Both the position numbers and the translations under genes were made by a program. The notes under the pieces were generated by a model that was given only the letters and a program-made list of their open reading frames with translations, had not been told where the DNA came from and ran no database searches. DNA of 64,000 nt from Psammoneis japonica (Eukaryota), in contig QPGO01000112.1 of the NCBI GenBank assembly GCA_008632985.1, positions 186,001-250,000 on the forward strand, in the 5' to 3' direction. This document shows positions 5,555 to 58,445 of the stretch, one piece after another (the stretch's first letter is position 1; every line of letters begins with the position of its first letter).

Positions 5555-6418
5555 CTATTTCGGGGACAACGCCATTGTGTTCTCTAGCCATTCGCTTCTG
5601 ACGAGGCTCTTGCTAGAGCCACGCGGCCAATCCTTTACGCACTCTTCAGCTACGACCCGTGGACTAGACTCAGGAGAGCTGCTACTCGTTTCTGGGTTAT
5701 AGATCAAGTCGTCCGTACAGGAGTTTAGCAATTTCTGTGCAAGACACTGCTTTCGATACAGTTCGGTTGCCAACGCATTCAGGACCTGACCCAAGGTTGA
5801 TACACGCTCATCCATTTGAACCAGCGGTAGTATGGTTGGCTCTTCTTGAGTTATCAATGACATATCAATCTTTTCCATGTTGCCCATATGAAAAGTCAAG
5901 AGCTGCTCAAACCGTCGTCCAAGCGCTGCCTGTCCTTGCGATAAGGAGGCCATGAGGCTTTTCAGCTTGCTCATCATGGATTCATGCTTTATCAAATCAT
6001 GACTGAGCGCCATGTTAACGTCGTCGTGGGTCAACACTGGCGTTCTCGAGTGCTTGAATCCATAGCATTTCCAATCTTGTCTTTCGTGATTAACTGCCAC
6101 ATGGCGACTCTCGAGATAAATTCGATGACGCAAGTTGGATATCGATTCGCAGACTTGCAACATGATGTCGTCTACCTGTATCCATTCCTGCTGCATGGTC
6201 AGTTGAAAAGACTTGATATGTCGCCAATAATCCTTGTTTAGCGAAGCAGGGATTCTTTGATTGGAAGGTGTTGGTATTGGCCCTGTATGAATGCCGGAGT
6301 TACTAGGCACAGGAGAGCTGAGAGCTGAAGAGTTTGGTTTCTTTTTTCCCCCCGTCATCATGAATTGCTGATACGCCAGATGCATACTGTCCTTGTCCGT
6401 ATTGCTATCATTACTCAT
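5555..6418 (-). CDS. Hypothetical protein of ~287 aa, probably helical/coiled-coil
   Basis: Long ORF with ordinary amino-acid composition; first ATG at 6418 (MSNDSNTDKD). No family recognised. Confidence 0.65.
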   Translation of the reverse strand: MSNDSNTDKDSMHLAYQQFMMTGGKKKPNSSALSSPVPSNSGIHTGPIPTPSNQRIPASLNKDYWRHIKSFQLTMQQEWIQVDDIMLQVCESISNLRHRIYLESRHVAVNHERQDWKCYGFKHSRTPVLTHDDVNMALSHDLIKHESMMSKLKSLMASLSQGQAALGRRFEQLLTFHMGNMEKIDMSLITQEEPTILPLVQMDERVSTLGQVLNALATELYRKQCLAQKLLNSCTDDLIYNPETSSSSPESSPRVVAEECVKDWPRGSSKSLVRSEWLENTMALSPK

Positions 6419-6442
6419 CTTGATATCAAGTATGCTCAATTT

Positions 6443-6784
6443 CTAATTGCTACTGTTATTGTCGCTGCTGCTGTCGCTCTTCTTGTAATAATCACGTTGC
6501 AGCTTTTCTTTAGAGGCGACAATCGCTTCAGGTTTCTCGTGAGAAAACAAATCGTGTCCTCGCTTCTCACTCTTTCCGTACACTGGAATGGCGCAAAGGC
6601 CAAGAAATATACTAGACGCCACAAACACTTGTGTGCGAGGTCCTCCAGGAATCTTCTTGACTGCGCAGAAAGTGGATGGATGAGAGAAGAGCAAATAGAA
6701 GATCGTGAGACGGACGAAAGAAGATAGAGCAACGACTCGTAATCTTTTGAAGCCAAACAACTTACTCAATGCTTCAAGCCCCAT
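6443..6784 (-). CDS. Small (~78 aa) spliced protein with one hydrophobic segment; intron 6661-6765
   Basis: Exon 1 ATGGGGCTTGAAGCATTGA|gtaag ... ttctgcgcag|TCAAGAAG gives MGLEALIKKIPGGPRTQVFVASSIFLGLCAIPVYGKSEKRGHDLFSHEKPEAI...; canonical splice sites around a 105-nt intron. Confidence 0.65.
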   Translation of the reverse strand: MGLEALSKLFGFKRLRVVALSSFVRLTIFYLLFSHPSTFCAVKKIPGGPRTQVFVASSIFLGLCAIPVYGKSEKRGHDLFSHEKPEAIVASKEKLQRDYYKKSDSSSDNNSSN

Positions 6785-7168
6785 ATGTGTCGATTGCGTT
6801 TGTGTCGATTGCGTTTGTTCGTTGCTGCTGTAGGTTATATTACTTCTAGAGCTGGTAGGAGCGGCAACGTTCTGTATGATTCGTCATGGTGAACTTTCCT
6901 CTGCGGCCGCGCCGCGCTTGCGCACTGACTCAGAATACCGCGCGCACGACGGAAAGAAGGGATTCACGAGGTCCGAGGTACGCAATCTTTATTCTCACAA
7001 CACTCAGAACCTGTTTTCGGCCCATTCAGATTTTTGCTCACATTTTGCGAAGCGATGCGACGCAAAAAAATCAAACCTAATATCATACTCTAGCTAGAGC
7101 ATCGCATCTACTCTATCATCCTTATCGCAGTCATCAACAACACTGTAGAATAGGAAGAAGCAGTCAAC

Positions 7169-10100
7169 ATGACGTCGTTGTCTCAACACGATGAGGAGGA
7201 TGCTATTTTCTTGAATGAAATGTCGACTCAGGGAGAACAGTTGGAAGAGCTGCACAAGAATCATTTGTTACGAATGGAAACAACAGAACTCCTGAGTGAA
7301 ATCTCGATTGCACCGTCGAGTTCCTGGTGGACGCGAACCAAAGAGTACGTTGCAACCATTCAAACAGTTTTGCAGCAGACACCGTCTCTCCGTGTCAATG
7401 TCAGTGAGTACTTTTCCAAGACGAAATGCCCAATCAAGCCTCTGTCGTCCACGAAAAAGCCCGTCGAACTCGAGTTGACTTCGTTTCAAGATGCAATGGT
7501 GATGGAATCCATGGGATCACAGGGCAATCACGGAATGGGACTCGTCAAGACCAGTGGTAATGCAAACATGCTTCCTACTTTGGATTTTCTAGTACGAATC
7601 CCGACTGACATTTTCAAAAGCAAAGACTACCTGGGATACGCGTACCTGGACAAGATCAATATCATTTTCTGGCACGTTTACACGCATTTGCATAAGCAGT
7701 CGCAAACCAAAAAAGGAAAGAACGTGGGGAAAGTGGAGTGGAGATTGTCGAGTGATGGTTGTAAGGCTCATCTTCTACTCACTCCTCCGGCTATAAACGT
7801 GAAGAACAGCAAGAAGAAACAAAAGACTGGAACGAAACAAAAGAACAAGTCGCTAAAGGTTTGCATTCAAATATTTTTCGGAATTGACAGTTTGGACTGG
7901 GTTCCTGCCCCTCGGCTATTTCCAAATCGGTGCAATCTGAAGCTCTCTAAAGAAAAGGAGGAATCCGATGTGGCAGTGTCGCCCATGTACAATTTCAGGT
8001 TGGCTGAGTGCTGCATGACGACCTCACAAGTAGTCCAAGAGCAGGAACATTTCCATGAGGATGATGCGCTACCACCAAACGTTCGTGACGCTGTTAATCT
8101 ACTCAAGGTTTGGTGTTTGCAACGCGGATTATTGAGAGGACACGACTCCTTTACTGCTTCGCATATTGTGATTCTTCTGCTCTATCTTTACAGGACGAAG
8201 CGAATAGGACCACGCATGGCATGCATGGACGTATTTGTTGTGACGCTACAATTCCTGATTGAAACGAATCTTGTTCTGGATTCGGACGATTCTCGAAAGC
8301 GCGTTGCACTCGTCATGCCCGCGATTCAGACGGACGAAGGCGCATCTAGAAAGTACAAATCGGAAGCCGCAACGATTTCGACATGTGAACAGGCCAAGCT
8401 TTATCAATCCCACACACATGCTAGCCCACTGACAAAAAATGATCCACCGACCTTGCAGGACTGCTTCCTAAAGTATACGCAGGGTCCAGTCTTCTTGGAT
8501 TCCAGTATGCGTATCAATTACTGGGCGAGACTGTCGCCGTCCTTTATGCATCAATTCGGAAGAGATGCAAAACTCGCTTTGGATTTCTTGCATGAATCGT
8601 CCACTATCACGAGGCCATTTGTTGGACTCTTTATGGAATCTTCTCGCTTTTGGTCTCGATACGATGCCTTTATCCGTGTGCCACTAAAGGATATTGCTAT
8701 CGGGCATTCAAACCTCTGGGGACATAACGCCCATGATGTTGGAAAATTGGAATGCATCCATCGTGGGCTGTACGATGTTTTGTCCACGGCTTTGGGAGAC
8801 AGGGTACGTTCATTACGCGTTCTGACAACGGGAAACGGAGCAGACAAGAACGATACTGATCAAATTCCAAAGTATTCCTTTGAGAGTCTGCCTGATAACA
8901 AGTTGCGTTCAACGCTTGGGCACGATGAGTTGGTTTTGGGAGTACAAATCAATCCGTCCACTGCTCATCGATTGGTAGACCGTGGTCCTCCGGCCAATGA
9001 CACCGAGGCAACGGCATCTTTTATTGATCTATGGGGTACCAAAAAGGCACAGTTGCGTCGGTTTATGGATGGCGCAATTGTCCATGCAGTGGTGTGGAAT
9101 AATCCCGAGAACGGTGACAGCGATGACGCGTACACTGTTTTTGAAAATGACGATAAAACAATGGGTGGTATCGTGGAGCGCATCGTTCAGCATGTCTTGG
9201 AGTTGCATTTTTTCAAACCTAAAAAGAGCAAGGGACAAAATGTCCAGTTTGCACTTCGCAATGTGCTCTCCCTTGTCGACGGAGTTGCAGGCTCGGATGA
9301 CAAGCTTTTTACTAGCTCCATGGCAGCTCACAAAAATCTTATGAATGCCTATGAGTCTCTCTCGCAGTTCTTAATACAAGCGAGCAGTCCTACATCCGTT
9401 CCAAATCGTGGTGAAACACAAGCACTGAAAAATCGACTGGGGCTACCTTTGTCCATTGACTCGGTCGAACCACTTTGCCCGGCTTTGAGATATACTGAGT
9501 TGTTCCCACCACTACCTCATCCTTTTTTAGGAGGAGAAAGAAATGTCAATATAACAGGACGTTCATCCAAAGTATCTGGAGCATTGATTGGGCCTTTGAT
9601 CAGGATTCAGATTCGATTTGGTCCTTCGTCGAAATGGCCAACCGATTTGCAAGCCATGCGAGCTGCCAAGACGGCAATGCTGGTTCAGCTTGCCAATGGC
9701 ATCGAGCTTCTAACCGAGGAAGGTGTCGACGGCGGAATTTATGTAACTCATGACTACATGGATGTCGGGTACAAGGGCTACTCCTTTCGCATTGTTGTAC
9801 GTGCCGATCCTGAGTTGAAGCTTCTGCGAAGTCTGATCAAGCCAAATCCCAAAGCTGCGAGCCTCTTGAATGTAAGTCCTAATATCATGGAGCATCGTAA
9901 TGCAAAAACCATGGCGTTTCTCACCTCTTTCATTTTGATTTGCATTCGTAGGCACTCGTTCGAGATCATGTGGTGGCTGCGATGCACCATACGACTATTC
10001 TTGCTGTCCATACCTTGAATCCATCGTTTGCCAGTGTTGTCCGTCTTGCCAGGCGCTGGGTGTCCTGCCACATGCTTTCTGACCTTTTACCTTTTGAAGC

Positions 10101-11404
10101 TATTGAGCTGGTAGTGGCCAAGGTATACACCGACCAAGAAACTCCTGATGAGGCGCCTGGGACAGTTTTGGCAGGATTTTTGCGGTTCCTGAAACTATTG
10201 GGGACTTTTGACTGGGCTAGGTGTGTACTTGCTCGTTCCTGACTTCTTTGTTGTTGTTTTTTTCTAACGTTTTATGCATATGGTGCCCTTCAAGAAATCC
10301 GCTCATTGTAGATCCGCAGATGCATTTATCAGATGACGACTGCGCTGCCATTCTGTCACAGTTTGAGTCGTCTCGCGGTCCCACCTACGAGAACGGGCCA
10401 GCGATGTATATTATTTCCCCAAACGACCGACAAGGGGTCGAATCAGAACAAGCAGAAGATCTTACGTCTACGCCACTTAGCAGTAATAATAAGGAGACTC
10501 AGAGTCGTTTATGGTCTCCGACTTTCACCCACGAACAGCCGGAATGGGTGACGCTGTCTCGCGCCGCATCATTGGCGAAGCGATCACATGACTATTTGAT
10601 GAAGCTTGTCATAGAAAATGCCTCCAGTGGTTCCCAAAGTGAGCAAAGTTGGGGAGCCGTATTCAAAGAAACCGCTACAGCAATCAAGTCGTACAATGTT
10701 CTTCTTCGTGTCGATCCCGAATTTGTCGTGGACAATACAAGCTCTTCGTCAGGAGCGAATCTCTCTTTGGTTCGAACGTCAGTTGATAGTCACTCCGCAA
10801 GGTCACTCGAAAGTCCGTTCACTCAAAGCATGCGCAGTCGTCAGTTTGGTCACAAAGTGTTGAAACGACGAATGTACAAAAACCTCAACAACTCTATGAG
10901 TGACTCGGGAATCATGGTAGGTTATTTGTCATGTGTATCGTCTTTACATGCTTCAAGACAATGCTAACCGAATCCTTACTTTTTCAGCATTCATTTAGGC
11001 CGGTTCAATCGATGGTGGAAACATTGAGAGAGAAGTTTGGGACGATGGCTCTGTTCTTCTACAACGACCTGGCTCCGGATATCGTTGCGATATTATGGCG
11101 ACCTACCACGTTTGTACCGCAACCTCTCAGCATCATGCGCTCTGCCTACAAGAGGCCTGTTGATGCCGGTGGATGGAGCTCGGACACGTTAGTCGTCAAC
11201 TGCGCCAGCGACCTTTTAAGAGAAATTATGCAATTTGGGGCGGACATTGTTGTCGGTGTCAAGGCTTTGGATAGCGAGGTGGATTCACCCACCATAAGGT
11301 CTCCGCCGAAGAAAGGACACAATCAGAAAAAGGGAAGACGCCGGAAAGGACCGGGGCACTCAGTGATGGCGAGTCTGAGTAACTTTGTCAGTCCTTTTTT
11401 CTAA
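7169..11404 (+). CDS. NOL6: Nrap/Utp22 (NOL6) family nucleolar protein, U3 snoRNA-associated; introns ~9872-9951, 10221-10294, 10917-10987
   Basis: Nrap-type motifs LLKVWCLQRG, VDRGPPA...FIDLWG.KKAQLRRFMDGAIVHAVVW, SSKWPTDL.A....KTA, GFLRFL.LL..FDW..NPLIVD and ALFFYN. GT-AG introns join the four ORF segments in frame. Confidence 0.9.
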
Positions 11405-11680
11405 TAATTGGCGTTGGATTGCACCGTGTTCTATGTCGTTAGACGATAGCGAGTCTAAGTACAATAGTTTCAAGTCTCTTACGGTTTAACGCAGCTTTTG
11501 AAAGAGGGTTGAGGGATTCAGAGTCTGCATAGCTTGAAGCAGCTGTTGCTTTGGAATACTAAAAGATGGCGGCGATCAGTGAGAGCGCTTACGAGTAGCT
11601 GAAAGTCCCTAATGCTAGCTTCAGAAGTAATTTATATCAAACCCTAACGATGTCTGTTGATGAACGACCACCAGATCGAT

Positions 11681-12877
11681 TCATGGGGAATGAAGCAGAT
11701 GCTTCCAACCAATGTCGTCTTCCGGAAGCAAATCAAGATCGTCCAACCGGAAAGGCTTCCCCAGCATATTGAATAGCTCCTGCAGCTTGGTGGGGTCGTC
11801 AGGCAGAGTAGTTGGTATGGTAGGCTCCTCGAGTTCTGGCGGAGGTCTTCGTATTTCCTTTGCAGGTCGTCGGACTTCCTGCGGAAGACTCTCATTCTCT
11901 TCGTCATCCGACAAGCATCCAATGTCTTCCAGCAAGAGACTCGCACTTTCAAGTGAAGCATAAAGGTCGTTCTCCTCCATAGAAGACGACGCCTCGCTTG
12001 GTGAATCTTGAGGTAGCATACTGTGAAGATCCACTAGATCCGTATATGACATCTTCCTCAAGAACGATGAGTCTTCTTCTATGTCGATATCTGAACCAAG
12101 AGAGAATGATGGAGAGAGGGGGGCTTTATTTTCTAATACGTTGAACCGCCGCTTAGCCCGACGCTTAGGAGTTGATGTTTCATCCTTTGCGCTTTCTCTA
12201 GGGCTCCTTTCCATATATGGTTCAGAATAGAAGTCAGGATCTAGGTCTGGATCGGCCTTGATTCGAAAGCGGTTGCCTTTTTGTCGCACAATGGCTATTC
12301 TTTCGCATAATTCGTACCGCCCTCGAAGAAAGTTTGGGTGATAGTACGCTCCCTTGTCTTTGCCCGAAGAAATTCTAGTGAACTGGAAAACGAAGAAAGC
12401 ACAACAATGAATAAGAATGATCAGTAGGCTTACGGGTAGAGAAAATTGAATCGCGCACTCACGACTCACCCCATAAAGATTGAGCTGTCTCTGTAGCGAC
12501 GGCCAAAACAGCAAGGAACAGAAAGTTCAGAAAGGAACTACATTGCTTTGTTTCTTTTCCTCGAGAAAAGACAATCCCACACTTACCTGAAACGATGGCC
12601 ACTTTGTTTGCCGGAACATTGTTTGCATAATCTCTAGAACGAATCGCTTAGGGTTGTGCACTCGAAACGCTCTGCCATGGGGCTGCCACGAAACGATACT
12701 ATCCTGACCACTTTCCTCAACAACATCAAGCATTTGATGAAGCACCTGAGGAAAGGACCGTTTCCTTGAGGCTAGGCTCCTGCCGTTGTTGCCGACTTTG
12801 CACCTAGGCTGCGAAAAAGATTCCAACTGTGTGGTATTCGCAATGATTGCCGCCTTTGGAAGAGCCATGGTGTTCAT
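11681..12877 (-). CDS. Heat-shock-factor (HSF) DNA-binding-domain transcription factor; exons 12877-12587, 12490-12470 (21-nt microexon), 12382-11681
   Basis: FPQVLHQML...IVSWQPHGRAFRVH...FRQTKWPSFQ|RQLNLYG|FTRISSGKDKGAYYHPNFLRG is the HSF DNA-binding domain. Splice sites are gtaagt/ctacag and gtgagt/ttccag. Confidence 0.9.
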
Positions 12878-13574
12878 TTTTGTTCTCCGAAGGGCTTAAT
12901 CGACAATGAGCAAAGATAGTAACGTTTTTGCTGAGTGGAAACGATTGTGATGAATCTTAATCGACAATGGGGAGCACTATTTACGTTTTTGCTGAGTGGA
13001 AGTGAATGTGGTGGAGTTTAGTTTTGCGATGCAGTGAAGTCAACAGTGAGCTAACAAACTTTGGCATGGGTCACGGGTGACAGTCATTATCTGCGTCTCC
13101 GATTAAAACAGTCATTAATGTGAGATTTTGTTATGGATCCTTCTGATCGAGAGGTCATCGTACGAATTTTACAATTATTAAACGGGTCTTGAAAATTACA
13201 TGTAGAGTCTTTCACAAAATGCAAAAGACGACTGCGCAACTTTTTGACAGATAATACATACTATATGCGCTATTGAATAGACACTCTTTGAAAACAAGAG
13301 ACCCAATAATTATTTCTTATCTGTCCGCGCCCATACCTGCTCCTGGGCATTAATTAACGAATGAGCTAAACAGTCATTCACATTTTGGTTCACTCGATAG
13401 TCGGTTGGATTAGACAAAAAAGGGTCTGCACCTAAGACATCGAGATACATTTCATTTTGTCCATTCTACAATGATTTGTATCAATTATGGACGTGGTAAC
13501 TTAATGACCGAGACGTTTTAATCTCGCGATAAATGTTTCGAGGTGATCCGATCGATCGTCAAAAGACTGCCGCG

Positions 13575-13732
13575 ACTCTGTAGCTACTCTCTACTACCGT
13601 ATTCATACAGTAGAGTAGAGCTCTAGTAGAGCTAGTAGAGCTAGTAGTAGCTACTCTCTAGAGCTATCTAGCTATCTAGCTACTCTCTACCGTACTCTCT
13701 ACTCTACTAGCTAGTAGAGAAGTAGTAGTAGC
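13575..13732. repeat. Low-complexity CTAG/GTAG/CTAC-rich tract in the divergent intergenic region
   Basis: Runs such as ctagtagagctagtagagctagtagtagctactctctagagctatctagc. Confidence 0.7.
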
Positions 13733-14371
13733 AACGAGGAGCGGTTGTTACGAAAAGGCAGTCAAAGCAAAGGGCAGTCTTCAGCATTGGCACTTCGAAG
13801 TGGACCCTGCTTCACGAGAGTGCTCCACTTTCGTAGCGAGTTTTGTTGCTACATGAGGCTTGACACTTCTCACCAATCACGCGGTAAGAGAGAGCGCGAT
13901 TCTGGTACTTTACTTCACTCGCAAGAGTTCACCTTTGACTTCCACTTGTGAAAGAGGTCACGTAATGTTGGTCTCTCTACGGTAGGTTTGCGGTTCAGAA
14001 ATACTCTAGCCTAGTAGTAGCTAGCTTCTTGGTGTAAAACGGAATCTGAAATAGAGAACCCTGCTCTCTGCTCTCCTTCTTTTTGATTTTGACGTGGCTG
14101 GACTCCACCCAAATCTACGTGGCTGCTAAGCTTCGTCAGCCTGTAGGTAGAAACATACCACAAGATTCCGTAAATGTTCGTTTACGTGGCTCGATGCGAG
14201 GCATTTGGTCAAGCAACGTACGTCATCGTGCGCCGTATGTAACTGCTTGGTATCCTGTCTACGAGAGCGCGATGCGCGTCCTTCTCCCAGTTTGCCAACG
14301 CACGATTTTTTATGGTGGCTTTTGCACATCACATAAATCTCGAATTCTTTCAGATTTCATACGTTGACACC

Positions 14372-14722
14372 ATGGCTCCTGTAAGTTGGATTAATTGCTT
14401 CGCAGTCGTTTTTGACGAACGATTTGGTTGTTGCCTTGGCTTGCTTGAAATCCGATGAAGATACTCATCTCTTTTGACATCTTTCTCTCCTATTCTGCAG
14501 ACCAAGATTGTTCTTCTCGCCGCCCTCGTTGCTGGCACCACCGCCTTCGCTCCTGCGCCCTTCACCCGCCCCTCCACTGTCCTCAACCAAGAGAAGGGAG
14601 CTGGCGGTATGCATGATACTCGTAACCCTGATGCCAAGGATGACGAAGATCCCCGCAAGTCTATCTCTGCCGCTCCTTCTTTCGAGGAGTACTTGAAGCA
14701 GCGTGAGGCTGAGGGCAACTAA
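14372..14722 (+). CDS. Small (~76 aa) protein with a bipartite plastid-targeting-like presequence; intron 14381-14500
   Basis: ATGGCTCCT|gtaagt...ctgcag|ACCAAG gives MAPTKIVLLAALVAGTTAFAPAPF...; signal peptide followed by an AFAP (ASAFAP-type) motif; C-terminal SAAPSFEEYLKQR; strongly biased codon usage. Confidence 0.8.
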
Positions 14723-16451
14723 ATTACTTCGCGTGAGTGTCTCCTCTCGAATGCCTACTATGGTGTTTGAATTTTGGTCTGCCGCTTAATCAGTGAGCTT
14801 GTCCAAGAGGAGAATGGGTTTTACTTCATGTGGGAGATGGCAAAGATCTCGGATTTGGCAAAGATCTTAGTTATACAGAGTAGACATTCGTTTGTGGTAT
14901 TTAGTCGATCAGTTTGCTATCCTCTATTTCTGCTGAGCATTATTATCCATCCTCGATCTGATATAGTCAGAACGCGATCTTTGCTTTGTGTTTTGCTCAA
15001 ACGTCTTCTCATTACGGCGCCATTGTCGTTTACGGTATCACGCCGATCCGCATACGCACGAGAGCGATCTCAAATCTAGGGCTATCTGGGATCTTTTGCA
15101 TCGAAAGAACGTACGTCACTCCCGCAGAAACTACTCAAAATCCTCGTCAATAGAGTGTTTTACAAAAAGCTATGTATTAGTTTATGTATATCTTCAAACA
15201 CGAAGCGCGATCAGCATCAAGACTGAAATTTGGCAAAATCTTCGTGAAAGCGCGGTCACAGACGATGGACTTCATCTTCAAAAGATTACCTTACGACTAG
15301 ATGATTATCGGTACGGATATGATCAGGATATGCCAGCATGACATGACAATCTAGATTAAAATCGTATGACGTGCTCTTCTCTCCGGACGCGACGATGACA
15401 GCGCACCACTGCAAAAGCGATTAAGACGCACGCTTGCTGTTTGCTGGTTGTTCGTTTGTCGTTTGTCGTTTGTCGTGTTGTGCTCGGTTCTTTCACTGCG
15501 GAAAAATCGATAAACAATGGTGAAATGACTGTCCCGTGGGTTGTGACTTGATGCACAAGCTTCGTTCTTCGCAAGTGCTCTCTCTCTCTCTCTCTCTCTG
15601 GTCTTGAATTGGTGCGTCGTGCCCCACAATTTGTCAGTCCCTTTTTGTCAATCCATCAGGCGCACAAGGGAAAATACCAATGTGCGAAAACAGATCTCTG
15701 TTTGGAACGTTAGAAAGTTGCTCGTGTCATTATCCTCGCTTGTTTTTAGTCACAGGTAATGCCCATCCTCTGTTTGTGAGCATAGCTTCCGAAATCATGC
15801 CCATGTTAAGGCTGAGAGTGCTGAGATTCTCTCTACAGAACATCGACTGTATGAGCTTCAGTCCAGCCGATGGAAATCGTTTCGACCGCCACAGACATTT
15901 GCGGCCACATTTCTCTGGGACTGCTTCAGCTAGCGCGGAGAGTTGCATGATGAAAATTATCTGAACGCCAGAAAGAATGTTAATCGTGTCAAGCTCTATG
16001 AAATATTGGCAATACTTCTCTGAGATACACGGTGAAAATTTGTGATGATGAAAATGCGGTTGCTGCCACCAAGTATGGAGCATCCTTAGTGCGTTTTCCA
16101 AATAGTAGCAATACGACCGTAGTTATGCACTGGTCAACCATTTTACTCGTTGCAAAGGATGGCATTGTTGCAGCAAGCCCGGGATCATCAATGGTTCCAC
16201 GGCGATACTTCTCTTCTAGGGGGGATGAATCGTTCTACAAAAGCCTTAAAAACGATGAGGTTCGGAAAGTACGAGTTACTTTGTTTCCTACAGGGTTTTA
16301 TATGGCGTGCAATGCTATTCCAACGCAGGGCGTGGATATTAGGATCAATGCCGGACACACAAAACGATGTAGGAACCGAAAGCACACAATAGAGGACTCG
16401 CGACTGACTGATTTGTCACCCTTGCTAATCTTCAAGAGAGTCTTATCCAGA

Positions 16452-17435
16452 TTACTTCTGATGCTTCGCTTCCACAATTCGTGTCGATTCCTTCCACTTC
16501 AATAGATCCTCTTTCCAGTCCAGTAACTCACAGAGTGCATGAACAGTCTCATCGCAATCACCTTCTAGGAATACATCTCGCCGATGCTTTTTGTGCATGA
16601 TATTGAAATCTCCAACAAAATCTCTATTGATCAAGACACGTTTGCAACTCACCATGTCTGGAATCAAGGATACCGGTGCCACGGAAAGAGACGTTCCCAT
16701 CACCAAGAGTAGATCTGCCCTAGGCAAATCTTGCTCCAAGAGCGGCCCAAACTTCCTTGGCAATCCCTCCCCAAAAAAAACAATGTCCGGCTTCACGTAG
16801 GATCCGCAGGACTTGCAAAGCGGTGGCGGAGACTCCTTTTCGTTCTCTTCCTTCAAAATGATGGATTTGCACTTGTCGCCATCAAAGGCTCTTCCGCACT
16901 TGACGCATGAAGCTGTGCGGAAGTGACCGTGGCATTCCATTATATGCTCAAGTGGGATCTTCGCGAGAGCTTCAAGTCCATCGATATTTTGTGTGTAGTT
17001 GCGTAATAATTTCTTTTGTTTTGCAAGCAAAGCAACAAAGACATGAGTGTAGGTCGGCGAATAACGCAATCCTGGCCAAATGCTCTGTGCCAGAGAACAG
17101 AATGGCTCGGGATTCCTCTTGTAAAAGCCAACATCAAAGATCGCTTCAGCGTAAGGCAAATTATACTTTTGCAGGTTGTCATAGAGGCCTGTCCCCGGTG
17201 TACGAAAGTCGGGAATTCCAGCGCTGCACGACACACCCGCACCACTCAATACGACAATTCTTTTTGAGTTACGGATCCAATCGGCCACCAATCGAAAGTC
17301 TTCAGAGAACTTTGGAGTTGAGATATTCAACTTCTCGATCTCCTGCGTTATTTTGTTGAGTGGCTCGTCCGTGTTAGACCTAGATTTATCAGAATCATTC
17401 GAAGCCTTTGCCTCTTCGTCGTCGGAAGTAGTCAT
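16452..17435 (-). CDS. NAD+-dependent deacetylase, class I sirtuin (SIRT2/3/Hst2-like)
   Basis: GAGVSCSAGIPDFR, GLYDNL, NYTQNIDGLE, CHG, two CxxC zinc ligand pairs, KPDIVFFGE, GTSL.V.P and LINR. First ATG at 17435; the ORF is open to a GTG at 17510. Confidence 0.95.
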   Translation of the reverse strand: MTTSDDEEAKASNDSDKSRSNTDEPLNKITQEIEKLNISTPKFSEDFRLVADWIRNSKRIVVLSGAGVSCSAGIPDFRTPGTGLYDNLQKYNLPYAEAIFDVGFYKRNPEPFCSLAQSIWPGLRYSPTYTHVFVALLAKQKKLLRNYTQNIDGLEALAKIPLEHIMECHGHFRTASCVKCGRAFDGDKCKSIILKEENEKESPPPLCKSCGSYVKPDIVFFGEGLPRKFGPLLEQDLPRADLLLVMGTSLSVAPVSLIPDMVSCKRVLINRDFVGDFNIMHKKHRRDVFLEGDCDETVHALCELLDWKEDLLKWKESTRIVEAKHQK

Positions 17436-17825
17436 AATGCGGAAGAAATTCTTCTGATTGCAGGCGAACGCTGGGTGATAACTGAACCTGCCGGCAGCGA
17501 AAACAGGCACGTTTGAGAGTCTCCAAATCAGGGGCGTAATTTTCTTGGTGGGTTATATACAACGGATATCTGAGTAGTAGGTTCTGTTCACAAAACAAAG
17601 ACCGTCAATGCCAGCAACGTTTCCCGCTCGAGTGGCCTCAAGAAGCTGTCGTCGAGTCAATAGGTAGCTGTTACAAGTTGCAGAGCACAACAACAGCAAC
17701 ACTTTTTCAGAGCAAACAATCATCGACGGAAAAGCGCGGAATGCGTCCGCGCGACTCCGTCGAATGGAAAAAGAAGCCGGGGGGCGGTGTGCGGCGGGAA
17801 ATGAAAAAATGAGCTTCACATTCCC

Positions 17826-19481
17826 AGTGAACCCAATTTCCGTTCAACAACGGATTCTGCATTTTACTGAGAGTGAAAAGAGGCCACTCATTTCACATTC
17901 TTCCCCTCNNNNNNNNNNNNNNNNNNNNNNNNNNNNNNNNNNNNNNNNNNNNNNNNNNNNNNNNNNNNNNNNNNNNNNNNNNNNNNNNNNNNNNNNNNNN
18001 NNNNNNNNNNNNNNNNNNNNNNNNNNNNNNNNNNNNNNNNNNNNNNNNNNNNNNNNNNNNNNNNNNNNNNNNNNNNNNNNNNNNNNNNNNNNNNNNNNNN
18101 NNNNNNNNNNNNNNNNNNNNNNNNNNNNNNNNNNNNNNNNNNNNNNNNNNNNNNNNNNNNNNNNNNNNNNNNNNNNNNNNNNNNNNNNNNNNNNNNNNNN
18201 NNNNNNNNNNNNNNNNNNNNNNNNNNNNNNNNNNNNNNNNNNNNNNNNNNNNNNNNNNNNNNNNNNNNNNNNNNNNNNNNNNNNNNNNNNNNNNNNNNNN
18301 NNNNNNNNNNNNNNNNNNNNNNNNNNNNNNNNNNNNNNNNNNNNNNNNNNNNNNNNNNNNNNNNNNNNNNNNNNNNNTGCAGAAGCCACAACAATTTTTC
18401 AAAAACTGACCAAGGTGCCCATTGTGGCCACAACTCTGAACAACACTTGTCGTGACATGCTGGCTCAGTTTCAGCGACATGTCTGGCATTGCCAAAGTTG
18501 TCGTTTTTTGTTTTGTGGCTCAGCAGCTTGTTCAGAGCAGGCTCATTTGTTTGGAAAAGCTTCAGCTCAACTGCCCATTTCATTGCATTTTGTTGTTTTT
18601 TCTGCTGCATTTGTCTGGGCCTCTTTGTGGCATTGGTGCCCCACACAATGCAGCTGCCAATCATCTGTCGTTTGCATGAGAACAATGGCGCACTTCCCTG
18701 TTACAATCCACTGTGTCCTCATCATCAACAACTTCCAAGGTTGTTGAAAAATGACTGTTGACCTTGGCACGCAAAATTGAATTCACTGAATGTCATGTGC
18801 ATGGCTGAAAAAATCAATGCATCTGTCTGATTGTCCATCCGTCCAAATTTTGAATGCCACATGTGCGTGAAGAACCACTCTGACCGGAGGACCAACACAT
18901 TGTGGCTGCACTCTTCACAGAAAAGCCACAAGGTTTCAAAAACTAACCAAGGTGCCCAATGCAGCCAGGGGGCTCTGAACAACATTTTGTCTTGACACAC
19001 TGGCTCACTTTCAGCCACAAATCTGGCATTGCCAAAGTTCCTTGTCATTTTTTGGTTGGCGGTTGTTGACACTTTTCAAATGGCCATGGATTTGCAATGT
19101 TTTGTTTTGTCCTCTGTGACATGTTTCTGCTCAACAAGAGTGCAACTTGTCAATGACTGAAATTTTCACATGCACCCCAATTGCACCCACAGATTTTCAA
19201 CACACGTGAGCCCAGTTTCCATTCAACAACGGATTCTGCATTTTGCTGAGAGTGAAAAGAGGCCACTCATTTCACATTCTTCCCCTCCGCCACTCCTTTT
19301 GCCACACTCCGTTTGCACCGCATCACCATGCATTCACCGTGCATTCCGTGCTTCCACAAAAGAGAAGTGGGGTGTGATGGCCGCCACAGGTGCCACTCTG
19401 TGCTGAAGTTGGAGTGTGGCATGCCATCTGGCACACTGGAAGCTGATTGCATTGCAAAACAAATGAAAATCTGTGAAATGG
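17826..19481. repeat. Tandem ~1.38-kb unit, first copies (spans the gap)
   Basis: Near-identical to 33039-34423, 47966-49347 and 55544-56919. Confidence 0.85.
17909..18377. other. Assembly gap (469 N) inside the tandem unit
   Basis: Run of N. Both flanks match the tandem unit, and the size matches the corresponding empty-site segment 32852-33319. Confidence 0.95.
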
Positions 19482-22400: not shown

Positions 22401-25071
22401 GCCAACGGCGGCATTGCTGGTGACGACGTTCGCGTCATTGCACGCACCTCTCGCCAAGTCGACGTTCAGGGCATTGACGACCATCAATTGGTGGACATCC
22501 CTGTTGTCACCGCTGGCGCCGTCATTGAGACCCAGCGTGGTCCCGTCATCGCCATCCTCCATCAGTGCGCGTGCACGGGAAAGGGCAAGACCATCCATTC
22601 CTGCGGCCAGCTTGAATGGCACAAACAGGATGTCCACGATCGCTCTGTCAAGGTGCCCAACGGCTTGCAACGCATTGCCACTCCTGATGGCTGTGTCATC
22701 CCCATTGACATCAAGGCCGGCCTGCCTTGTGTTGCCATGCGACCTTGCACTGACGCCGAATGGGACACCCTGCCCCATGTCATCCTCACCGGTGATGACA
22801 CATGGGATCCTTCCGTCCTCGATCACTCTGTCACTGATGGCGACCAGTGGTGCGACGCGATCTCTGACCTGCAGGACGATCCCACTGCCAACCCATTTGA
22901 CGAACACGGCAACTGCCGTCATCGTGTCGTTGTCAACGAGACCATCATGTCCGCTTCCTTGTCTGCCGATCACGCGTCCGCCCTCGATGATCACCTCATT
23001 CCAAATGACGACGTGTTCTACGAGTGTCATCCACACGCGATTGACCCCAAGGGCGACGACGTCCCGCCCCCGGAGCGCACTGTACAGCCCAAGGACCCCC
23101 CCTTCGAGTCTCTTCGGCCTCACTTTGGCTTCCTGCCTGCCGATGCGGTCCGTCGTGCTTTTGACTGCACCACGCAGTGCGCCCGCATGCCTGCCGGCAC
23201 ACACCTTAGGAAGGCCTGCAAATCACCCAACCCCGCCCTTAACGTGCACCGCCGCAACGAGCCTGTCGCCACTGACACCATTTGTGCCGACACCCCGGCT
23301 GTCGACTCTGGTTGCACCAGCGCCCAACTGTTTGTTGGCACCGAGTCTACCGTCACTGACGTCTGCAGCACCAAGACGGACAAAGAGTTTGTCAACACAC
23401 TCGAGGATCAGATCCGTGAGCGTGGTGCCCCATCCAAACTCATTGGCGACCGTGCTCAAGTTGAGATCAGCAACAAAGTGCTCGGGATCCTACGAGCCCT
23501 CTTCATCTCCAGCTGGCAAAGTGAGCCTCACCAGCAACAACAAAACTTTGCCGAGCGTCGACACCAGACCGTGAAGCGCATGGCAAACACTGTCATGGAT
23601 CATTTTGGTTTGCCCGCCCACACATGGCTGCTGGCGCTCATGTGTGTGTGCTTCATGCTCAACCATGCAGCGTCCCCACGTCTCCACTGGTGCACGCCCC
23701 TCGAGACTCTCACTGGCTCCACCCCGGACATCAGCCCATTGCTTTGCTTTCACTGGTGGGAACCCGTGTGCTTCCACCTCAATGACTCCGATTGGCCGTC
23801 CGAATCCCGTGAGTTGCGTGGACGCTTCGTTGGCATTGCTGAGCACGTCGGCCACCAGATGACCTTCAAGATTCTCTCTGACAAGACTCAGAAGATCCTC
23901 CACTGGTCCAACGTACACTCCGCTGCCACCGATCCTGCCGTTCGAAACCTGCATCTTGATCCTCCTGATGGGAGCCACCTGAACCCATCATCAAATCTCG
24001 CCATGACGACAACCCCGTCGATTCTCCTGATGGGAAGATCAGGACACCCAAGATGCCAGTTTTCGATCCGCAAGACATCATCGTACCTTCCTCATGCAGC
24101 CACAAGAGGACGGACAATGCCACAGAGCTCGCATCGTCAAGGCCGTCGAAGACCATGAATGGAAAGTGAACGGCAATCCCGAGCTTGCTAAGTTCGTCTG
24201 CTCTGTCAACAACGATGAATGCGAGGAAGTCCTTGCCTGCAACGACATCATGAATCACATGAGCAAGAAGACAAAGACACTGCTGTTTGGAAATTCCGAC
24301 GCATCGTGTCACACGAAGGACCTCTGAAGCCTCATGACCCAACCTGGAAAGGCTCAAGCTACAACATCATGCTTGAATGGGAAAGTGGGGAGATCACGTC
24401 CGAGCCTCTCGCCATCATTGCCAAGGATGACCCCGTCACCTGCGCCATCTATGCACGAGAGAACGGACTTCTCGACACGGATGGCTGGAAGCGGTTCCGC
24501 ACCATCGCGAGGCACCAAAAGAAGCCATTTCGCATGGCCAACCAAGCCAAGCTTCGCTCCTTCCGCACTGCACCTCGCCACAAGTGCGGATGCAAAGTTC
24601 CCCGGAACTGCAAACACGCCATGTCACTAGACGAGCGCAACGGCAACCGCAAATGGGGAGACGCAACTAATCTCGAGATGGCCAACTCGGGGAATACGAA
24701 GTCTTCCATGACTGCGGCCCTTCGAGTCTTCCACTCCTCCTGCGGGACACAAGAAGATCCGAGTGCACCTGGTGCACGACGTGAAACACGACGGTCGCCA
24801 CAAGGCACGACTCGTAGCCGATGGGCACCTCACGGACATGCCTGTCGACAGTGTCCACTTCGGAGCAGTCTCCCTCCGTGGCCTTCGGTTGATGATTTTC
24901 CTGGCCGAACTCAACGAGTTGGAGACATGGGCCACCGACATTGGCAATGCCTGTCTTGAAGCCACCACTGAGGAGAAGCTCTACATTGCAGCCGGACCCG
25001 GATTTGGCAAACTCCAAGGACACATCCTTGTCATCCACAAGGCCCTGCATGGGCTGCGCAGCTCCGGTCTC

Positions 25072-28000
25072 AGTCGAGATGCAGTCCCACAGCTGAGTGG
25101 GATGGACAAGACCTCGGAGGTTGGCAGCAATGTGAGTGGCGACAGAGGCAAACAGACGCTTGTTGAAAGTCGTTGTCCAGAAATTGTGACGAATGTCGTT
25201 GCTTCTGTTTGAATCGATTTTGTGATGAGCCAATTATTTTCGAAGAGAAAATCTGAGTCTGGGTTGCAGTCGTGAGATGTGACCAGAATGACGTTGAGTC
25301 GTGACTCTCCCTCTCAACCGAGAGAGCTCACCAGCCCACAAGAGCCTTTCCAGCCGCACGGAACGCATCGGTCCGTAGTCCCTTCGTGAACTGATCGGCC
25401 AGTTGCTCTAGAGTGCTGACAGGTTGGATGTCGATCTCCAATTGTTCGACTTTAGTCCTAAACCAGTGGTGCGGGGTGCCGATGTGTTTGGTTCGCGGAG
25501 ACAACTTGGGCGTGCGTGCGAACTTGAGGCACGCGGAGTTATCTTCGTACACAACGGACGCAGGCAGGACATTCTGCTCTACAGGCGAGTCATCGGTGCC
25601 TTGGGTTGCGAGCTCAAAAGCCTTGGAGTGAGTCGTGATGGGGTTTTGGTGGTCAGACTTTCCAAGTGCGTGGTGGTTGGGCTCCTTGAGAACTTCACGA
25701 GTGGGGATGAGATCGCGCATGGCTTGAGAAAGTGCGACATGTTCCGCTTCCATGGTCGACAATGCTGCAAGAGTCTGCAGCTTGGACACCCAGACAAGCG
25801 GGCAGCCGGCGCAGCAGACAAGGTGTCCAGTCCTGGACTTGACAGAAACTGGGTCTTGACCATCTTCCACACCAAATGACCCCGCGAAGTCAGAATCGAC
25901 GCAACAATCAACTCGATGATCTTGCGCAGGCTTGAGAATGAGACCTTCAGCAGCAGTTGCTTTGAGGTGTCGGAGCATCCGCTTCACTGCAGCAGCGTGG
26001 GACGCTCGGGGCGCAAACGAGAATCGAGCTGCTTGATGTGTGGCATGTGCAATGTCTGGCTGGCTGTTCGCTGCCAAGCACATCAACATTCCAACAACTG
26101 AGCGATAATCGCAGGGTTCATCAAAAGGCAGGCCGTCCGTGTTGGCACCAACAGCCGCAGGTAGAGCTGGAGTAGATGCTCCATTGCAATCCTGCATCTG
26201 TGCGGCACGCAGGACCTTGTCAATTAGACCGGGTTGAGTGAGTAGAAATCGACCCTCGGAGAGCTTTTCGATCTTGACACCGAGAAAGTTGCCGACTTCT
26301 CCTTCGTCTCTAAGTTCAAATGCGTGGCGATGTTCGTCGTCGGAGACTCCTAACTTGCGAATTTCGGCTTCTAGAGCTTCAGCTGAAGCTCCAGCAAAAA
26401 CGGTGTCGTCGACGTGCACCACACACATCATGCCCTCTTTGAAATACAAACAGGGATCTATGGCTGAAGGTGCCCATCCGCGCTTGGTTAAACCAGCTCG
26501 CAACTTCTCGCAGAAGCCCTTGGGAGACTGTTTTAGGCCGCACAGTCCTTTCAAAAGTTTGAGAACCATGTTGAGTCCCGACCTTGGCGCAAATCCCTTC
26601 GGCGGTGTTATGCAAACTTCTTCAGCGATGTCAGCTTGGCAAAAGGCTGTGGCACAGTCCACCTGTCATGCAGCCCATCCCTCCTTTAATGCCGCAGTGA
26701 GCATGAGTCGGATGCTGGACCATTGCACAACCGGCGCGCAGGTTTCGAAGCAGTCGACTCCTTCTTTCTGCAATCACCGCGGACGCAGTGTCGGGCCTTG
26801 TGCTTGAGAGGGGTTCCATCTGGGAGTCTCTTGAGCTTTGGTGCCCATGTGCCTGGAAGTGCATTCATGTGCAGCTGACGCTCGACTGCTTTCCAGGCTC
26901 GACGATGTGTGAGTGCGTTGACTTCAATTTTCATCGCCTTGATCCATTCGTTGGCGTCCGGACCTTTCAGAGCATTGTGTGACGAAGGCACATCAGGGTC
27001 CTTGGTTTTCTTGCTAGCTGCGCATGCTCGTGGATCGCCGATGTTGATGGCACCACTGTCCAAATCCATCTCGAGAGTCACCAGATGCGCTGGTTGAGCC
27101 TCGTGTCCGATCGGCAGCGGCATTTCCTCAACGGAGCTGAAGCAGACCTCATCTACAAACTTGGCAGAGTTGAACTGTCCCTTGGTTGACCGTGAAGACC
27201 GTCGCAGCCCTGGTGCTCCCTCTGGATTCGTCACAGGAGGTGTCTTGACTGGGGGAGGAGCTGTTGGTTCCGTCGGCGCTTCGGGTGGCGGAAGTCCGTT
27301 GCCATCTTGAGGTTCAGGTGGCTGAATTGGCGCAGAGTCCGCAGAGTCTGCAGGTTTTTGAGTCGCAGGTGGGACTGGTGGCGTTGGCTGCTGAGTCGCA
27401 GGTGCGACTCGATCGGTGACGTCGTCGCGAGAAATGGGTGAGTCCGGCACAGTGATCGATGGAGTGGGCTCAAAATGCCCGCGAATGCGTGTTGCTCTGG
27501 CCAGTTCTCGTTCTTTGCATTGACGCTCTGGAGGGGCAAGCCACTCATCGTGTAAATGAACTGCCTGATCCTTCTCCAGAGGGATGCACATCGATTGGTT
27601 GAGGCACAAGTGTTCCCAGTGATCAGGTGGATCCGTCTCCCTCTCGATTGATGGTGCGGCAGTGAAGAGATCGTCAAAGACCACATGATGCTGAGGTGCA
27701 ACACTTCCAGTTTGAAGATTGAGGACCAAAGGAACCTCACTGGAATGGATGGCACTGAGTCCCACGAACAAAGCGCGACAAGTGCGAGGCTCCCAACGCG
27801 GGAGCTTCTTCCCGGAAGCGAGGGTCGGGTCAAGTGCGTACGCTGGACATCCCCATGTGTGAATGTCGCGCAACCGATGTCTTGGCACTGTCGAACCGGT
27901 GAAAATGTCCGCTGGGCAATGTCCTTTGGAATTTGGGGTGACATTGTAGATGTGCGTGGCACAAGAAACTGCCATGGGCCACAGGGAGCTGTCAATCCCC

Positions 28001-30920
28001 CCCTTCCAGTGGATTGATGCATGAAGCAACATCGCTCTCGCCATGTTGGAGATGCTGCGGACACCCCGCTCTGCGACGCCGTTCTGATGATGGGCGTTGG
28101 TTCCACAAAAATGGAGACATTGTTCATGATCTCGTGTGTGTTGTACAAAAGCGTTGGCCTTGAAAGCGCCACTGTCGGTAAGAAATTCTTGGACGATGAC
28201 CCCGTGGTCCAAAGCATGTTTCTCAAACGCTTGCTTCGCGCGTGTCGTCTCAACAGCGGAGAAACCCAGTTGGTGCTCGACCTGGACATAGCCAGAGGCG
28301 TGGTCGACAAAGACACAACCGCCCTTGAATTGCTTGGACGTGGCTTTGCCATGAGAGTTGAAGGTGCGGCCTAAAAGGCGCGACTCAAGATGATCAACGC
28401 TGACAGCCTGACCCGGTCGAAGATGGTCAGCTCGAAGGGCCCCGTCGCGTTCAGGGACTGTCGACTTGTGAGTAGATCCAAGAGAGCGTCTGTGACCTTT
28501 AGCATGTTCGCATGCCTCGCATCTTGGGTGGTCACACTTCGCTGCGGACTTGAAATGGTTCGAAAGGAACGGAACTGCGCGGAGAAGTGATTGGACGCGA
28601 CCAAAGTTCAAATGGCCAAAACGGGCGTGCATTTCGAGAAGAAGCTTTTGGCCTGCCGTGAGGTTTTGATTCTCCTCGTTAAGGATCTGAAGGTTCACTT
28701 GAGGAGCGGCAGACACGCCCTTGGTCATCGACGCAACAGGCAAGTGGCTTGATGGATGACATGGCACGACCAACTTGCCTGTCCCGTCAACATGTAAACG
28801 GAAAGTGGTTTCATCGCCCTCACACTTCCCACGTACCCCCTTCTCTTCGTTGAAGAGGCGTTGAGGCGACAGCAGGCGCTGACGGGCTCCAGGGACGTAG
28901 CATGCCATGGTGTTCAGTTGGATGGTAGCCCCACTCGGCGTTGTGAACACCCACGCAACCGGACCGGTGCCCTGGATGGTGAGACCGTTGGCAATCCCAT
29001 TGATCTGTAAGGGTTTCTTGGGAACAGTCATGGGCCCCGTAAAATCATCTTTGTCGGGGGTGACAGCTAACGTGGCACCAGCATCCATGACGACCGTGAG
29101 AGCCTCGTCCGACAGACCGATGAGTGGGCTTGTGATTGTCCGGTGAGCAGTTGGATGGTGGAGGCATTGTAGACGACTGGTCCAACACTTGCTTCCTCCA
29201 ACAGTTCCACAGGATCTTGAAAATGGGCAGTGTCCACGATGTGATGCGGCAGACAGAGCTCGTCAAACCGGAAGAAATCCGGGCTGAAGTCCTCAAGAGC
29301 GTCAAAGAAATGCCTCTGGTCGTCGAGAGGTTCCAGTTCCTCACAGGTGTCAAAGAAGGCTGATTCGTCTATCGCATCAGACCGTTCAGCTACTTCTGGG
29401 CTCTCCCAGTGGGCCTTGAGACGAGTGCTCAGTGCGTGTGACGGATGGCGCGCGACAAACTCGGTGAGCACTTGCGTGCCTTTGATCCTGTGACATTCGA
29501 ACAGTGACCCCGTGTCCAACACTGTCCGGTCATCTAGCTCTTCCACAACATGGTAGACTTGAGAGCCAGCGGTCGAAAAACGACTTGGTGCGTTCGAGAA
29601 TGGATGCTCGGGCTGTTGACCGGCGTAAACTGCTGACCATGCCATCACTGCAATGGATGGGACCATCCAGGAGGCTGGAAACCCGTGCAAAGTTGGGAGT
29701 TTGCGCTGGCGGCGTAGAGCTCGAGGGACACATGGGATTGGAGCAAAGCAAAGATGTAGTGCCATTTCCCAAAACATGGCGGCGAGCCAGAGTGTGAACA
29801 GCTTGACTCGACCCAAGAGTGAGCGACGCGAAGTGGGCTCGTCTTCGACGTCCTCGTGACAATCATCCGCATCCAGGACCTCTGGATCGTAGAAATCGAA
29901 GCCACGATACGTAACACACGGAGGCAAGTCGCAGCATGCGTCTTCAAAGTGTACGTCGTGTTCAAGGATGAGATCTAACTTGGTGTCGTCTGACAGCATG
30001 TCCGTCAAATGTGCGGGAGCGTCAAAGAACTCATCTGGATGCTTGATGGAGTACAGCTTCGAGGCCGGAAACAACTCAATAGCCGGTGGTTCGTTTTCAA
30101 AGGTAGAGAAAGCGTCGGAGCATTCGTAGAAGTCATCGGCGTCTTCGGGAGTGACAGTCTCAACCACGATGGGAGACACGACTGGATCCACAACTGAGGT
30201 GAGTGCAGGTGGGCTCGTTTCGATGCAAACCACCTCAGTGCCAACGACTGTATCGCTCTCCCTCTCGGCCGAAGAAGCCGGAGCAACCACAATTGCAGCA
30301 GTGACAGGGGCGGAACAGAAATCCGGGTCGGCAACGGGATCCGCAGCCGCGCACCACATTCCTGTGAAAACCAACTCGTTGGGGTCGGATTCGTCTCCCT
30401 CTGGTGCCTTGGCAGTCTGAGCGGGCGGACCCATGGGCACGCCACCATCCGGATCAGCAACGGAAGACAAATTCCCGGCTGGGGTCTCCTTGGGAGGTTG
30501 CCTGCGGTCGTCGGCATGTTCCGCGGTAGAGTGCTTCTGGTGGATTCCAGGTTTGTTGGCACCCTTCGCCTTGCACGTGGCACACCACTTCCATTCCTTG
30601 CCATTCTTATCCTTCTTCGTTTCTCCGTCAAATTTAGCACTCCAGGCAGCGATGGGTCGCCTCTTCTTCTTGGAAGGGTCGTCTGCAGGCGGCGGATTGG
30701 GAGGAGGATCGTCGCGCGGCGGTTTGGCGTTGCACTTCGGACACGTCTTCTTGGTGCACCCCTCGAGACCGCAACCATGACAGTGCTTCGTCTTCCCAGG
30801 GGTTGTCCGCAGTCGAAAGATTACTCTCGGGTAGCTTGGCCACTAATGCAGGCCATTCCCCGTCCTTCATGAGTTCGTTGTGTTGCTCTTGAATCCACGC
30901 AATGATGCCGACCGGTCCGA
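25072..30920 (-). mobile_element. Ty1/copia element B, copy 1; 5'-truncated, nested in the RT of element A; 3' LTR 25072-25306
   Basis: Zinc knuckle, protease (MDAGA), integrase (HARFGH, HQNGVAER), RT (LCGLKQS, HVDD) and RNase H (DSDFAG, ADQFTK) on the minus strand; PPT gagagggag. Confidence 0.9.
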
Positions 30921-30922
30921 GC

Positions 30923-31247
30923 GAATGCTGTACACTGCCTGACGAGTGCGGGAGGTTCTCAACAACCCAAGAGGCAAAGAAATTACCACTCGGCTAATTG
31001 TTGAGTCCCTTCTCCGCACACACATTCAGGCATGTGTTGTGCACAGCATCATCACACAGCATTTGTCCAACTCTCCCTCTCGTCGCAGGATGGGGCATCG
31101 CCTTGGGGGGCGCATCCGCACGGCGGACTTACAAATTTGACCATGCACTCCCTCTGATGGGCAGGATGGGCAGCGCCATGTGGCGCATCCGGCCAAGGGA
31201 GGAGTGGGTTCGAAGCCCAACCGCCCACCCCGGATGGGGTTGGAAAG
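30923..31247 (-). mobile_element. Truncated copy of the TRIM-like element (one 150-bp repeat plus part of the interior)
   Basis: Matches 45892-46214, then jumps into RT/RNase H sequence of element A (~866 bp missing relative to copy 2). Confidence 0.75.
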
Positions 31248-45890: not shown

Positions 45891-45891
45891 T

Positions 45892-58170: not shown

Positions 58171-58445
58171 TGAACCCAATTTCCGTTCAACAACGGATTC
58201 TGCATTTTACTGAGAGTGAAAAGAGGCCACTCATTTCACATTCTTCCCCTCCGCCACTCCTTTTGCCACACTCCATTTGCACTGCATCACCGTGCACTCA
58301 CCGTGCATTCCGTGCTTCCACAAAAGAGAAGTGGGGTGTGATGGCCGCCACAGGTGCCACTCTGTGCTGAAGTTGGAGTGTGGCATGCCATCTGGCACAC
58401 TGGAAGCTGATTGCATTGCAAAACAAATGAAAATCTGTGAAATGG

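Follow-up and report, generated by a model that had tools for sequence, protein, structure and literature searches.

A sirtuin gene fragment captured by a diatom transposon array has lost TpA dinucleotides that its native source retains

What decides which DNA is struck by a TpA-directed mutator is left open in the available text of the Bigelowiella natans preprint (bioRxiv 10.64898/2026.01.13.699255), and the locus described here constitutes, together with its controls, a natural experiment on this question. In the diatom Psammoneis japonica the same sirtuin sequence and promoter are found twice, one partner being enclosed by repeats, and 31 diagnostic sites allow chromatin, methylation and RNA reads to be assigned to each partner. 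We analyzed a window of 64,000 nucleotides (contig C114:186001-250000; positions below are those of the window unless a contig is named) and searched the 91.4-Mb assembly.

A sirtuin gene and its partner in a repeat array

The genic stretch of the window (about 3500-17700) features TA o/e values of 0.44-0.94 per kb and includes an Nrap/Utp22 gene on the plus strand (7169-11404), whereas TpA is almost absent and CA/TG are overrepresented in two TA-erased blocks, at positions 1-3000 and from 17827 onward, which have sharp edges and a TA o/e of 0.01-0.38 per kb. Scored by kb windows, about 48% of C114 and 27% of a 150-kb stretch of contig C1 have a TA o/e below 0.2. The TA dinucleotides surviving in the erased blocks of C114 are context-biased: relative to its genic share ATAT is almost gone (0.04) and ATAC/GTAT stand at 0.2, with CTAA/TTAG (3.1) and TTAA (2.5) persisting, a pattern that may provide a clue to the favored motif of the mutator. 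A decayed tandem repeat with a period of about 190 bp is also found at 61986-63015.

At the edge of the genic stretch lies an intact single-ORF sirtuin gene of 327 residues (16452-17435, minus strand), which is of SIRT2/SIRT3/Hst2 type by its ORF, Pfam and PDB matches. Its SIR2 domain is complete (positions 1-180 of 180, E 3.6e-52) and in open frame, as would be expected for a class I sirtuin, and the top PDB matches are SIRT2 and SIRT3, with E about 1e-69. The upstream or promoter region (17436-17826, minus strand) carries 11 TA at 17479-17672, all intact, and is followed directly by the first copy of a tandem unit, R (17827-19205, plus strand; 1,379-bp unit), which forms the left edge of the TA-erased block and holds an N gap (17909-18377) of a size that fits R without an LTR. 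From here an array of about 42 kb extends over 17827-59824 (TA o/e 0.01-0.38 per kb), in which R, a Copia element A and a nested Copia element B have all been amplified together in tandem. Element A (plus strand, LTR of 276 bp, three partial copies) is inserted in R with the target-site duplication AATGG; element B is nested in A in the opposite orientation, with copy 1 at 25071-31247 and copy 2, with a 1,491-codon pol ORF, at 40016-46214, both on the minus strand. The GC-rich array is not rDNA, as an Rfam scan of the window returned no matches.

By self-BLAST, the segment 16913-17908 is matched in direct orientation and without gaps over 996 bp by 57256-58251, at 96.9% identity and a distance of 40,343 bp, and a genome search with the sirtuin DNA matched just these two places. 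The native partner comprises codons 1-174, the upstream region and the first 82 bp of R. The sirtuin part of the other partner is a truncated copy of 914 bp (57256-58169, minus strand) with the upstream region, the ATG and codons 1-174, and is bracketed by direct R repeats: a truncated R on its left (56652-57257, plus strand), joined through a 2-bp (CT) microhomology, and an R unit on its right (58170-59824, plus strand), which contains a solo LTR of element A at 58446-58721 with the 5-bp target-site duplication AATGG. A local direct duplication with microhomology has thus put the sirtuin promoter and 5' half between two R repeats, and the native gene adjoins R at its promoter side alone. The duplication probably continues across the assembly gap, with an end near 19205 that corresponds to 59824. 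One TA within R, at 17865 and 58208, survives in the two R starts next to sirtuin DNA, and the remaining five read TG there.

One-sided loss of TpA in the captured copy

Since the duplication the copy, and not the native gene, has gained A:T>G:C changes almost solely at TpA and on both strands, plus CpG transitions. Of the 31 substitutions that separate the partners, 22 abolish a native TpA (16 TA>CA and 6 TA>TG on the plus strand) and 2 give the copy a TA that the native partner lacks; CpG transitions account for 5 and other transitions for 2. TA counts are 35 in the native partner and 15 in the copy. TpA makes up only 70 of 526 A/T bases but receives 22 of the 23 A:T>G:C changes (Fisher p 4e-20), a roughly 225-fold enrichment relative to A:T sites of the copy outside TpA, the latter figure resting on a single background change. 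The two sites with TA in the copy alone correspond to a stop, Q117* (57430), and to E45K. The copy carries 13 residue changes in addition to the stop, among them Y85H, Y91C and Y95C, which replace tyrosines conserved across the three SIRT2/SIRT3 alignments compared, and this identifies it as the derived partner; Q117* and E45K are likewise best read as derived in the copy, so that the native partner has lost none of its 35 TpA detectably, against 22 of 35 for the copy. The earlier claims of a direct duplicate of about 1 kb lying 40 kb away, and of an array copy that alone is mutated, are hence borne out, with the corrections that the interval first given, 16913-17700, was too short, the duplicate extending to 17908, and that the copy is not promoterless. 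The upstream TAs described as kept in the native gene (17511-17675) number 10, of which the copy has lost 7.

The asymmetry extends to silent sites, where TA losses in copy and native partner stand at 12:0 (8 non-coding and 4 synonymous; binomial p 0.0005), or 8:0 for non-coding sites alone (p 0.008). At 17479-17672, 155-348 bp from R, the copy has lost 8 of 11 TA and the native partner none; since corresponding promoter TAs, equally far from R, survive in the one and are mostly lost in the other, distance to R is not what sets the partners apart. Lost and kept TA sites are not clustered along the copy (site runs p 0.37) and the losses hit both strands (strand runs p 0.12), with a 16:6 split favoring the sense strand of the gene (p 0.052), which becomes 80:57 (p 0.06) or 86:65 (p 0.10) when pooled with the Copia comparisons. 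TA loss in the copy goes together with CpG decay (5 of 60 CpG, p 0.03), as would be expected if this decay were the trace of methylation. TA o/e in the native partner is 0.58 over the duplicated coding sequence and 0.62 upstream, compared with 0.65 in the genic flank and 0.34 in the non-duplicated 3' half of the gene. We considered whether the native partner is itself TA-depleted relative to its surroundings (it has 35 TA per 996 bp, whereas genic windows have a median of 45 and range from 30 to 83, 6% of them lying at or below 35) and rejected this, because the deficit lies in its last 235 bp, which are TA-poor in both partners.

These counts also bear on a scenario in which both partners were mutated and hit native alleles were then purged by selection or overwritten from the homolog by mitotic recombination or gene conversion. 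In its favor, the native gene is intact and conserved, 10 of the copy's 14 TA losses in coding sequence change an amino acid, and interhomolog mitotic recombination in diatoms is reported to exceed 4 per 100 divisions (bioRxiv 10.1101/2020.11.08.373134, available text); an unduplicated homolog may moreover serve as donor, as suggested by the copy's assembly arms having less than half the native depth (see below). It is nevertheless at odds with the 12:0 count at silent sites, and with losses that are scattered over two strands, from which single silent hits should persist; an intact second allele should shield a single hit allele from strong selection, and apparently non-coding repeats in genic DNA are likewise spared. 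Overall, we regard purging as very unlikely.

Still less credible, to the point of being most improbable, is that the copy represents an artefact, either a mis-joined allele or base-calling errors from modified bases. Contigs from sequencing run X1 contain two bubbles, at 57440-57556 and 57867-57976, whose minor arms equal the copy with zero mismatch, at depths of 29 and 26 against 74 and 71 for the native arms. These separate arms cover 11 of the 31 changes, in clusters of 5 and 6, and 9 of the 11 are TA losses; a mere allele should reach the depth of its counterpart, yet these arms have less than half of it, and the clean microhomology joins two identifiable sequences. On the other side, among the 8 of 30 X1 contigs listed none spans the 57255/57256 junction and the other 19 listed sites show the native letter alone, the native partner adjoins an N gap, and the runs derive from one sample, possibly the source of the assembly itself. 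Native-only letters are, however, uninformative, as contigs discard minority paths. The depth ratio loosely suggests that the copy is present on one homolog.

Duplicates inside and outside TA-erased blocks

Taken alone, the sirtuin pair is a weak test against homology sensing, because it is short, distant and under selection and its copy lies between two direct repeats. We therefore compared duplicates inside and outside repeat blocks, as the preliminary description had proposed, in a survey covering about 0.54 of the 91.4 Mb, in which pairs with both partners erased were skipped in the genic-pair scan. With both partners inside, units 1 and 2 of the array (12.9 kb) show symmetric TA losses, 15 against 20 (p 0.5), scattered and on two strands. 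With both outside, six genic pairs (308-650 bp, 80-99.5% identity) show TA-type changes at 21 of 151 substitutions, compared with 22 of 31 here (p 5e-10), so that these pairs display background TA change only and the symmetric loss that would have spoken against domain targeting is not seen in them. Examples include a 99.5% identical light-harvesting-protein (LHC) pair 23 kb apart (16 and 15 TA) and a 96.5% tandem pair (10 and 8 TA). In an LHC tandem of 650 bp with a spacing of 1.1 kb, TA-type changes make up 3 of 21. Most of the pairs are short (308-650 bp) or functional, and the count of 21/151 leaves out the near-identical multi-kb sets C91/C541/C252 and C82/C337, which show no TA loss and may be alleles, as well as C14/C145, C23/C39 and a C111 tandem. 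Light-harvesting-protein matches in the genome number 82, in keeping with a diatom.

Dispersed repeats provide a complementary comparison. An element of about 1.1 kb (C1:297768-298921), with no ORF above 185 codons and no Pfam match, has 129 candidate places in the genome, 40 of which were scored; we sampled 10 copies down the ranking and two from C1, one serving as the reference, so that 11 were compared, and the ranking by likeness to a TA-rich query favors TA-rich copies. The seven copies with a TA-normal upstream flank have each lost 1-4 of 32 TA (20/224 in total, against 22 reverse changes) and carry 38-58 other substitutions, whereas the four with an erased upstream flank have each lost 20-25 (91/128 in total, 1 reverse) and carry 50-63 other substitutions, two of these four having common upstream sequence. 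Given the similar numbers of other substitutions within the same family, age explains little of this split and copy number none. The reference element ends 3' in short tandem units, and in three of the four erased copies TA is back about 100 bp beyond the core. A second element, of 308 bp with terminal inverted repeats of about 50 bp (C1:337877-338184), has 105 candidate places, several 98-100% identical, and the four copies examined, all in genic DNA, have a TA o/e of 0.60-0.89.

The long Copia A elements behave differently from what position alone would predict. We compared the 5' 1.5 kb at 60 loci, of which 11 duplicates were dropped to leave 49 distinct copies with 11-94 TA each, one without a flank reducing the flank analysis to 48. 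Copies with a TA-normal flank do not retain more TA (rho -0.28, p 0.06, n=48), and flank state is not supported as a predictor: the median is 57 TA in 38 erased flanks against 25 in 6 genic ones, five of the six genic-flank copies are reduced to 15-38 TA, and many copies deep in erased DNA retain the TA-rich LTR and leader of the family. Element length, age or LTR activity thus matter as much as position. Long elements appear to seed their own domain, and newcomers in a block seem either to need time or to be protected at an active LTR. TA loss in Copia A does not follow the flank, and "position" is to be understood as chromatin state and not as coordinates. The proposal in the preliminary description that targeting follows a domain and not homology is consequently supported in part, through the genic-pair and dispersed-element controls more than through the sirtuin pair itself, with position alone failing on the 48 Copia copies. 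Loss of TA after insertion is seen, as historical counts, in a Copia A LTR pair and in the array units.

Copia A has 943-978 candidate places in the genome, and among its 5' ends no fewer than two inherited TA profiles can be told apart (about 16/25/15/5/3 and 17/25/23/16/11 per 300 bp), suggesting that partly erased elements still transposed. In a younger copy 19-25 kb past the window end (C114:269056-275055; 91-94% identical to the array copies) the LTRs differ by 10 changes, the 3' LTR has lost 5 TA, and at one further site one LTR has TG where its partner has CA, as would result from a common TA; its 5' 900 bp retains TA although erased DNA lies further out.

The same controls weigh on the idea that repeats are paired in a RIP-like manner to start the domain, with mutation then spreading into the linker, here the copy, and a 0.9-kb match 40 kb away falling below threshold. 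The copy indeed lies between direct R repeats (56652-57257 and 58170 onward), and DIM-2 mutates the linkers of repeat-linker-repeat constructs in Neurospora (PMC11969663, available text); DNMT4, a possible RID relative, is reported in many diatoms (PMC9998398, available text), DNA-cytosine-methylase (PF00145) matches in this genome number 27, counted without DNMT family typing, and long Copia copies are mutated even with genic flanks. Nevertheless, the element of about 1 kb with its 129 candidate places is spared in genic DNA, the tandem LHC pair 1.1 kb apart shows no more than the 3 of 21 TA-type changes given above, and the B. natans target is described as single-copy (bioRxiv 10.64898/2026.01.13.699255, available text). 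Homology-triggered seeding, which differs from our preferred reading solely in how the domain starts, is accordingly judged rather unlikely.

We consider it probable, instead, that long repeats give rise to silenced domains, that these domains attract a TpA mutator, and that host DNA enclosed in them is hit as well. In such a model long transposons and tandem arrays would seed a silenced, CG-methylated chromatin domain, within which the TpA-specific mutator would act gradually on all DNA, whether repeated or unique. An active gene would bound the domain, mutation ending within about 150 bp of its edge, and the native sirtuin gene would escape by lying outside, its sequence match to the copy recruiting no mutator. 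The "domain" is delineated here from TA content itself, which renders the reading partly circular.

Candidate activities and relation to known systems

As for the chemistry, analogy with the proposal for B. natans makes adenine deamination in DNA (A to inosine, read as G) by a TadA/ADAT-fold enzyme a slightly better than even candidate, and an error-prone polymerase or a repair bias in heterochromatin, although unlikely, would be its main competitor, with a small share left to other routes. The genome holds five TadA-fold matches, four of which were examined and match TadA or dCMP-deaminase-type NCBIfam models below cut-offs; these four presumably resemble housekeeping deaminases in their family features, and no dedicated or unusual deaminase was found among them. 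A TadA-fold domain at C79:88000-89200 (minus strand) continues in frame into a second sequence, possibly as a fusion protein, and we take this second sequence to resemble the start of a 2-oxoglutarate/Fe(II) oxygenase. Several of the PF00145 matches are clustered (C297, C10, C301) and have internal stops, and are perhaps transposon-borne.

Tentatively, and with somewhat less than even confidence, these elements may be combined into a chromatin-guided DNA adenine-editing defence that operates without copy pairing, is shared with a distant rhizarian and is possibly ancient in SAR, erasing TpA in silenced domains so that the landing site of a duplicate decides its fate. Such a defence would kill the copy and leave the original, the opposite of the cost that RIP imposes on gene duplication. 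If targeting is domain-guided, a second supergroup would possess a programmed A>G mutator of nuclear DNA. Its effects would reach to transposon decay, base composition and what becomes of duplicates, and it would open a way towards a DNA adenine-editing activity.

The closest likeness is with B. natans, where integrated NCLDV and virophage DNA has been described as undergoing TpA-specific A:T>G:C hypermutation (Mettrop et al., bioRxiv 10.64898/2026.01.13.699255). According to the available text of that preprint, a single-copy 186-kb region gained 2-45 changes per line, all on TpA, at a rate raised about 1000-fold in mutation-accumulation lines, and an ADAT2-like deaminase is proposed, unproven there. 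As far as that text goes, both systems feature TpA>TpG/CpA changes on both strands, confined to regions and two to three orders over background, with A:T>G:C nearly all at TpA (22/23, p 4e-20 here), and bounded, transposon-rich blocks that are TA-depleted and CA+TG-rich (TA o/e 0.01-0.38 against about 0.45-0.95 in genic DNA here). The diatom differs in belonging to another supergroup, in having about half of contig C114 erased, and in that the target is a captured piece of a host gene, present in two copies and lying between repeats, with an unmutated source and with CpG decay alongside, known here from historical counts alone. The word "diatom" does not occur in the available text of the preprint, and we found no description of TpA hypermutation in diatoms in the literature searched, whose coverage excluded most subscription papers. 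Within the literature searched, the signature has so far been published for one unrelated alga alone, and the present locus shows a diatom version of a recently described process.

DNA methylation would account for a part of the pattern. In Phaeodactylum tricornutum DNMT5 methylates transposons in CG context (PMC9998398, available text), and a similar marking of transposon-rich domains would explain the CpG transitions of the copy. Decay of 5mC yields C>T alone, however, and cannot make TA>CA or TA>TG.

RIP is premeiotic and RID-dependent. With it the process described here shares, as far as the available sources go, repeat association, dinucleotide-specific transitions, damage to host DNA among repeats and, probably, modulation by chromatin state. 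The base pair and the direction are opposite, RIP creating TpA by C>T whereas 23 of 31 changes here are A:T>G:C and 22 destroy TpA. RIP yields same-strand clusters per event; in the copy both strands are hit, with p 0.12 for strand runs and p 0.37 for site runs. The premise of the preliminary description that RIP mutates both partners was too strong: in Neurospora an unlinked young duplicate escapes RIP in about half of the spores, and a natural Sly1 pair is asymmetric, with 309 one-sided changes (PMC11969663, available text). Our search for literature on asymmetric RIP yielded nothing useful. Short, GC-rich coding duplicates are moreover reported to escape RIP largely, and RIP leaks into flanks (PMC7296669, available text), so that RIP, too, might leave untouched a 0.9-kb partner at a distance of 40 kb. 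Nonetheless, per cross about half of the spores carry RIP mutations in the euchromatic partner, whereas genic partners here show no excess loss (native gene 0/35, genic pairs 21/151, high-copy element spared). Overall, the process departs from RIP in chemistry and partner symmetry and works like its heterochromatin-dependent arm, and B. natans hypermutation is its closest published counterpart.
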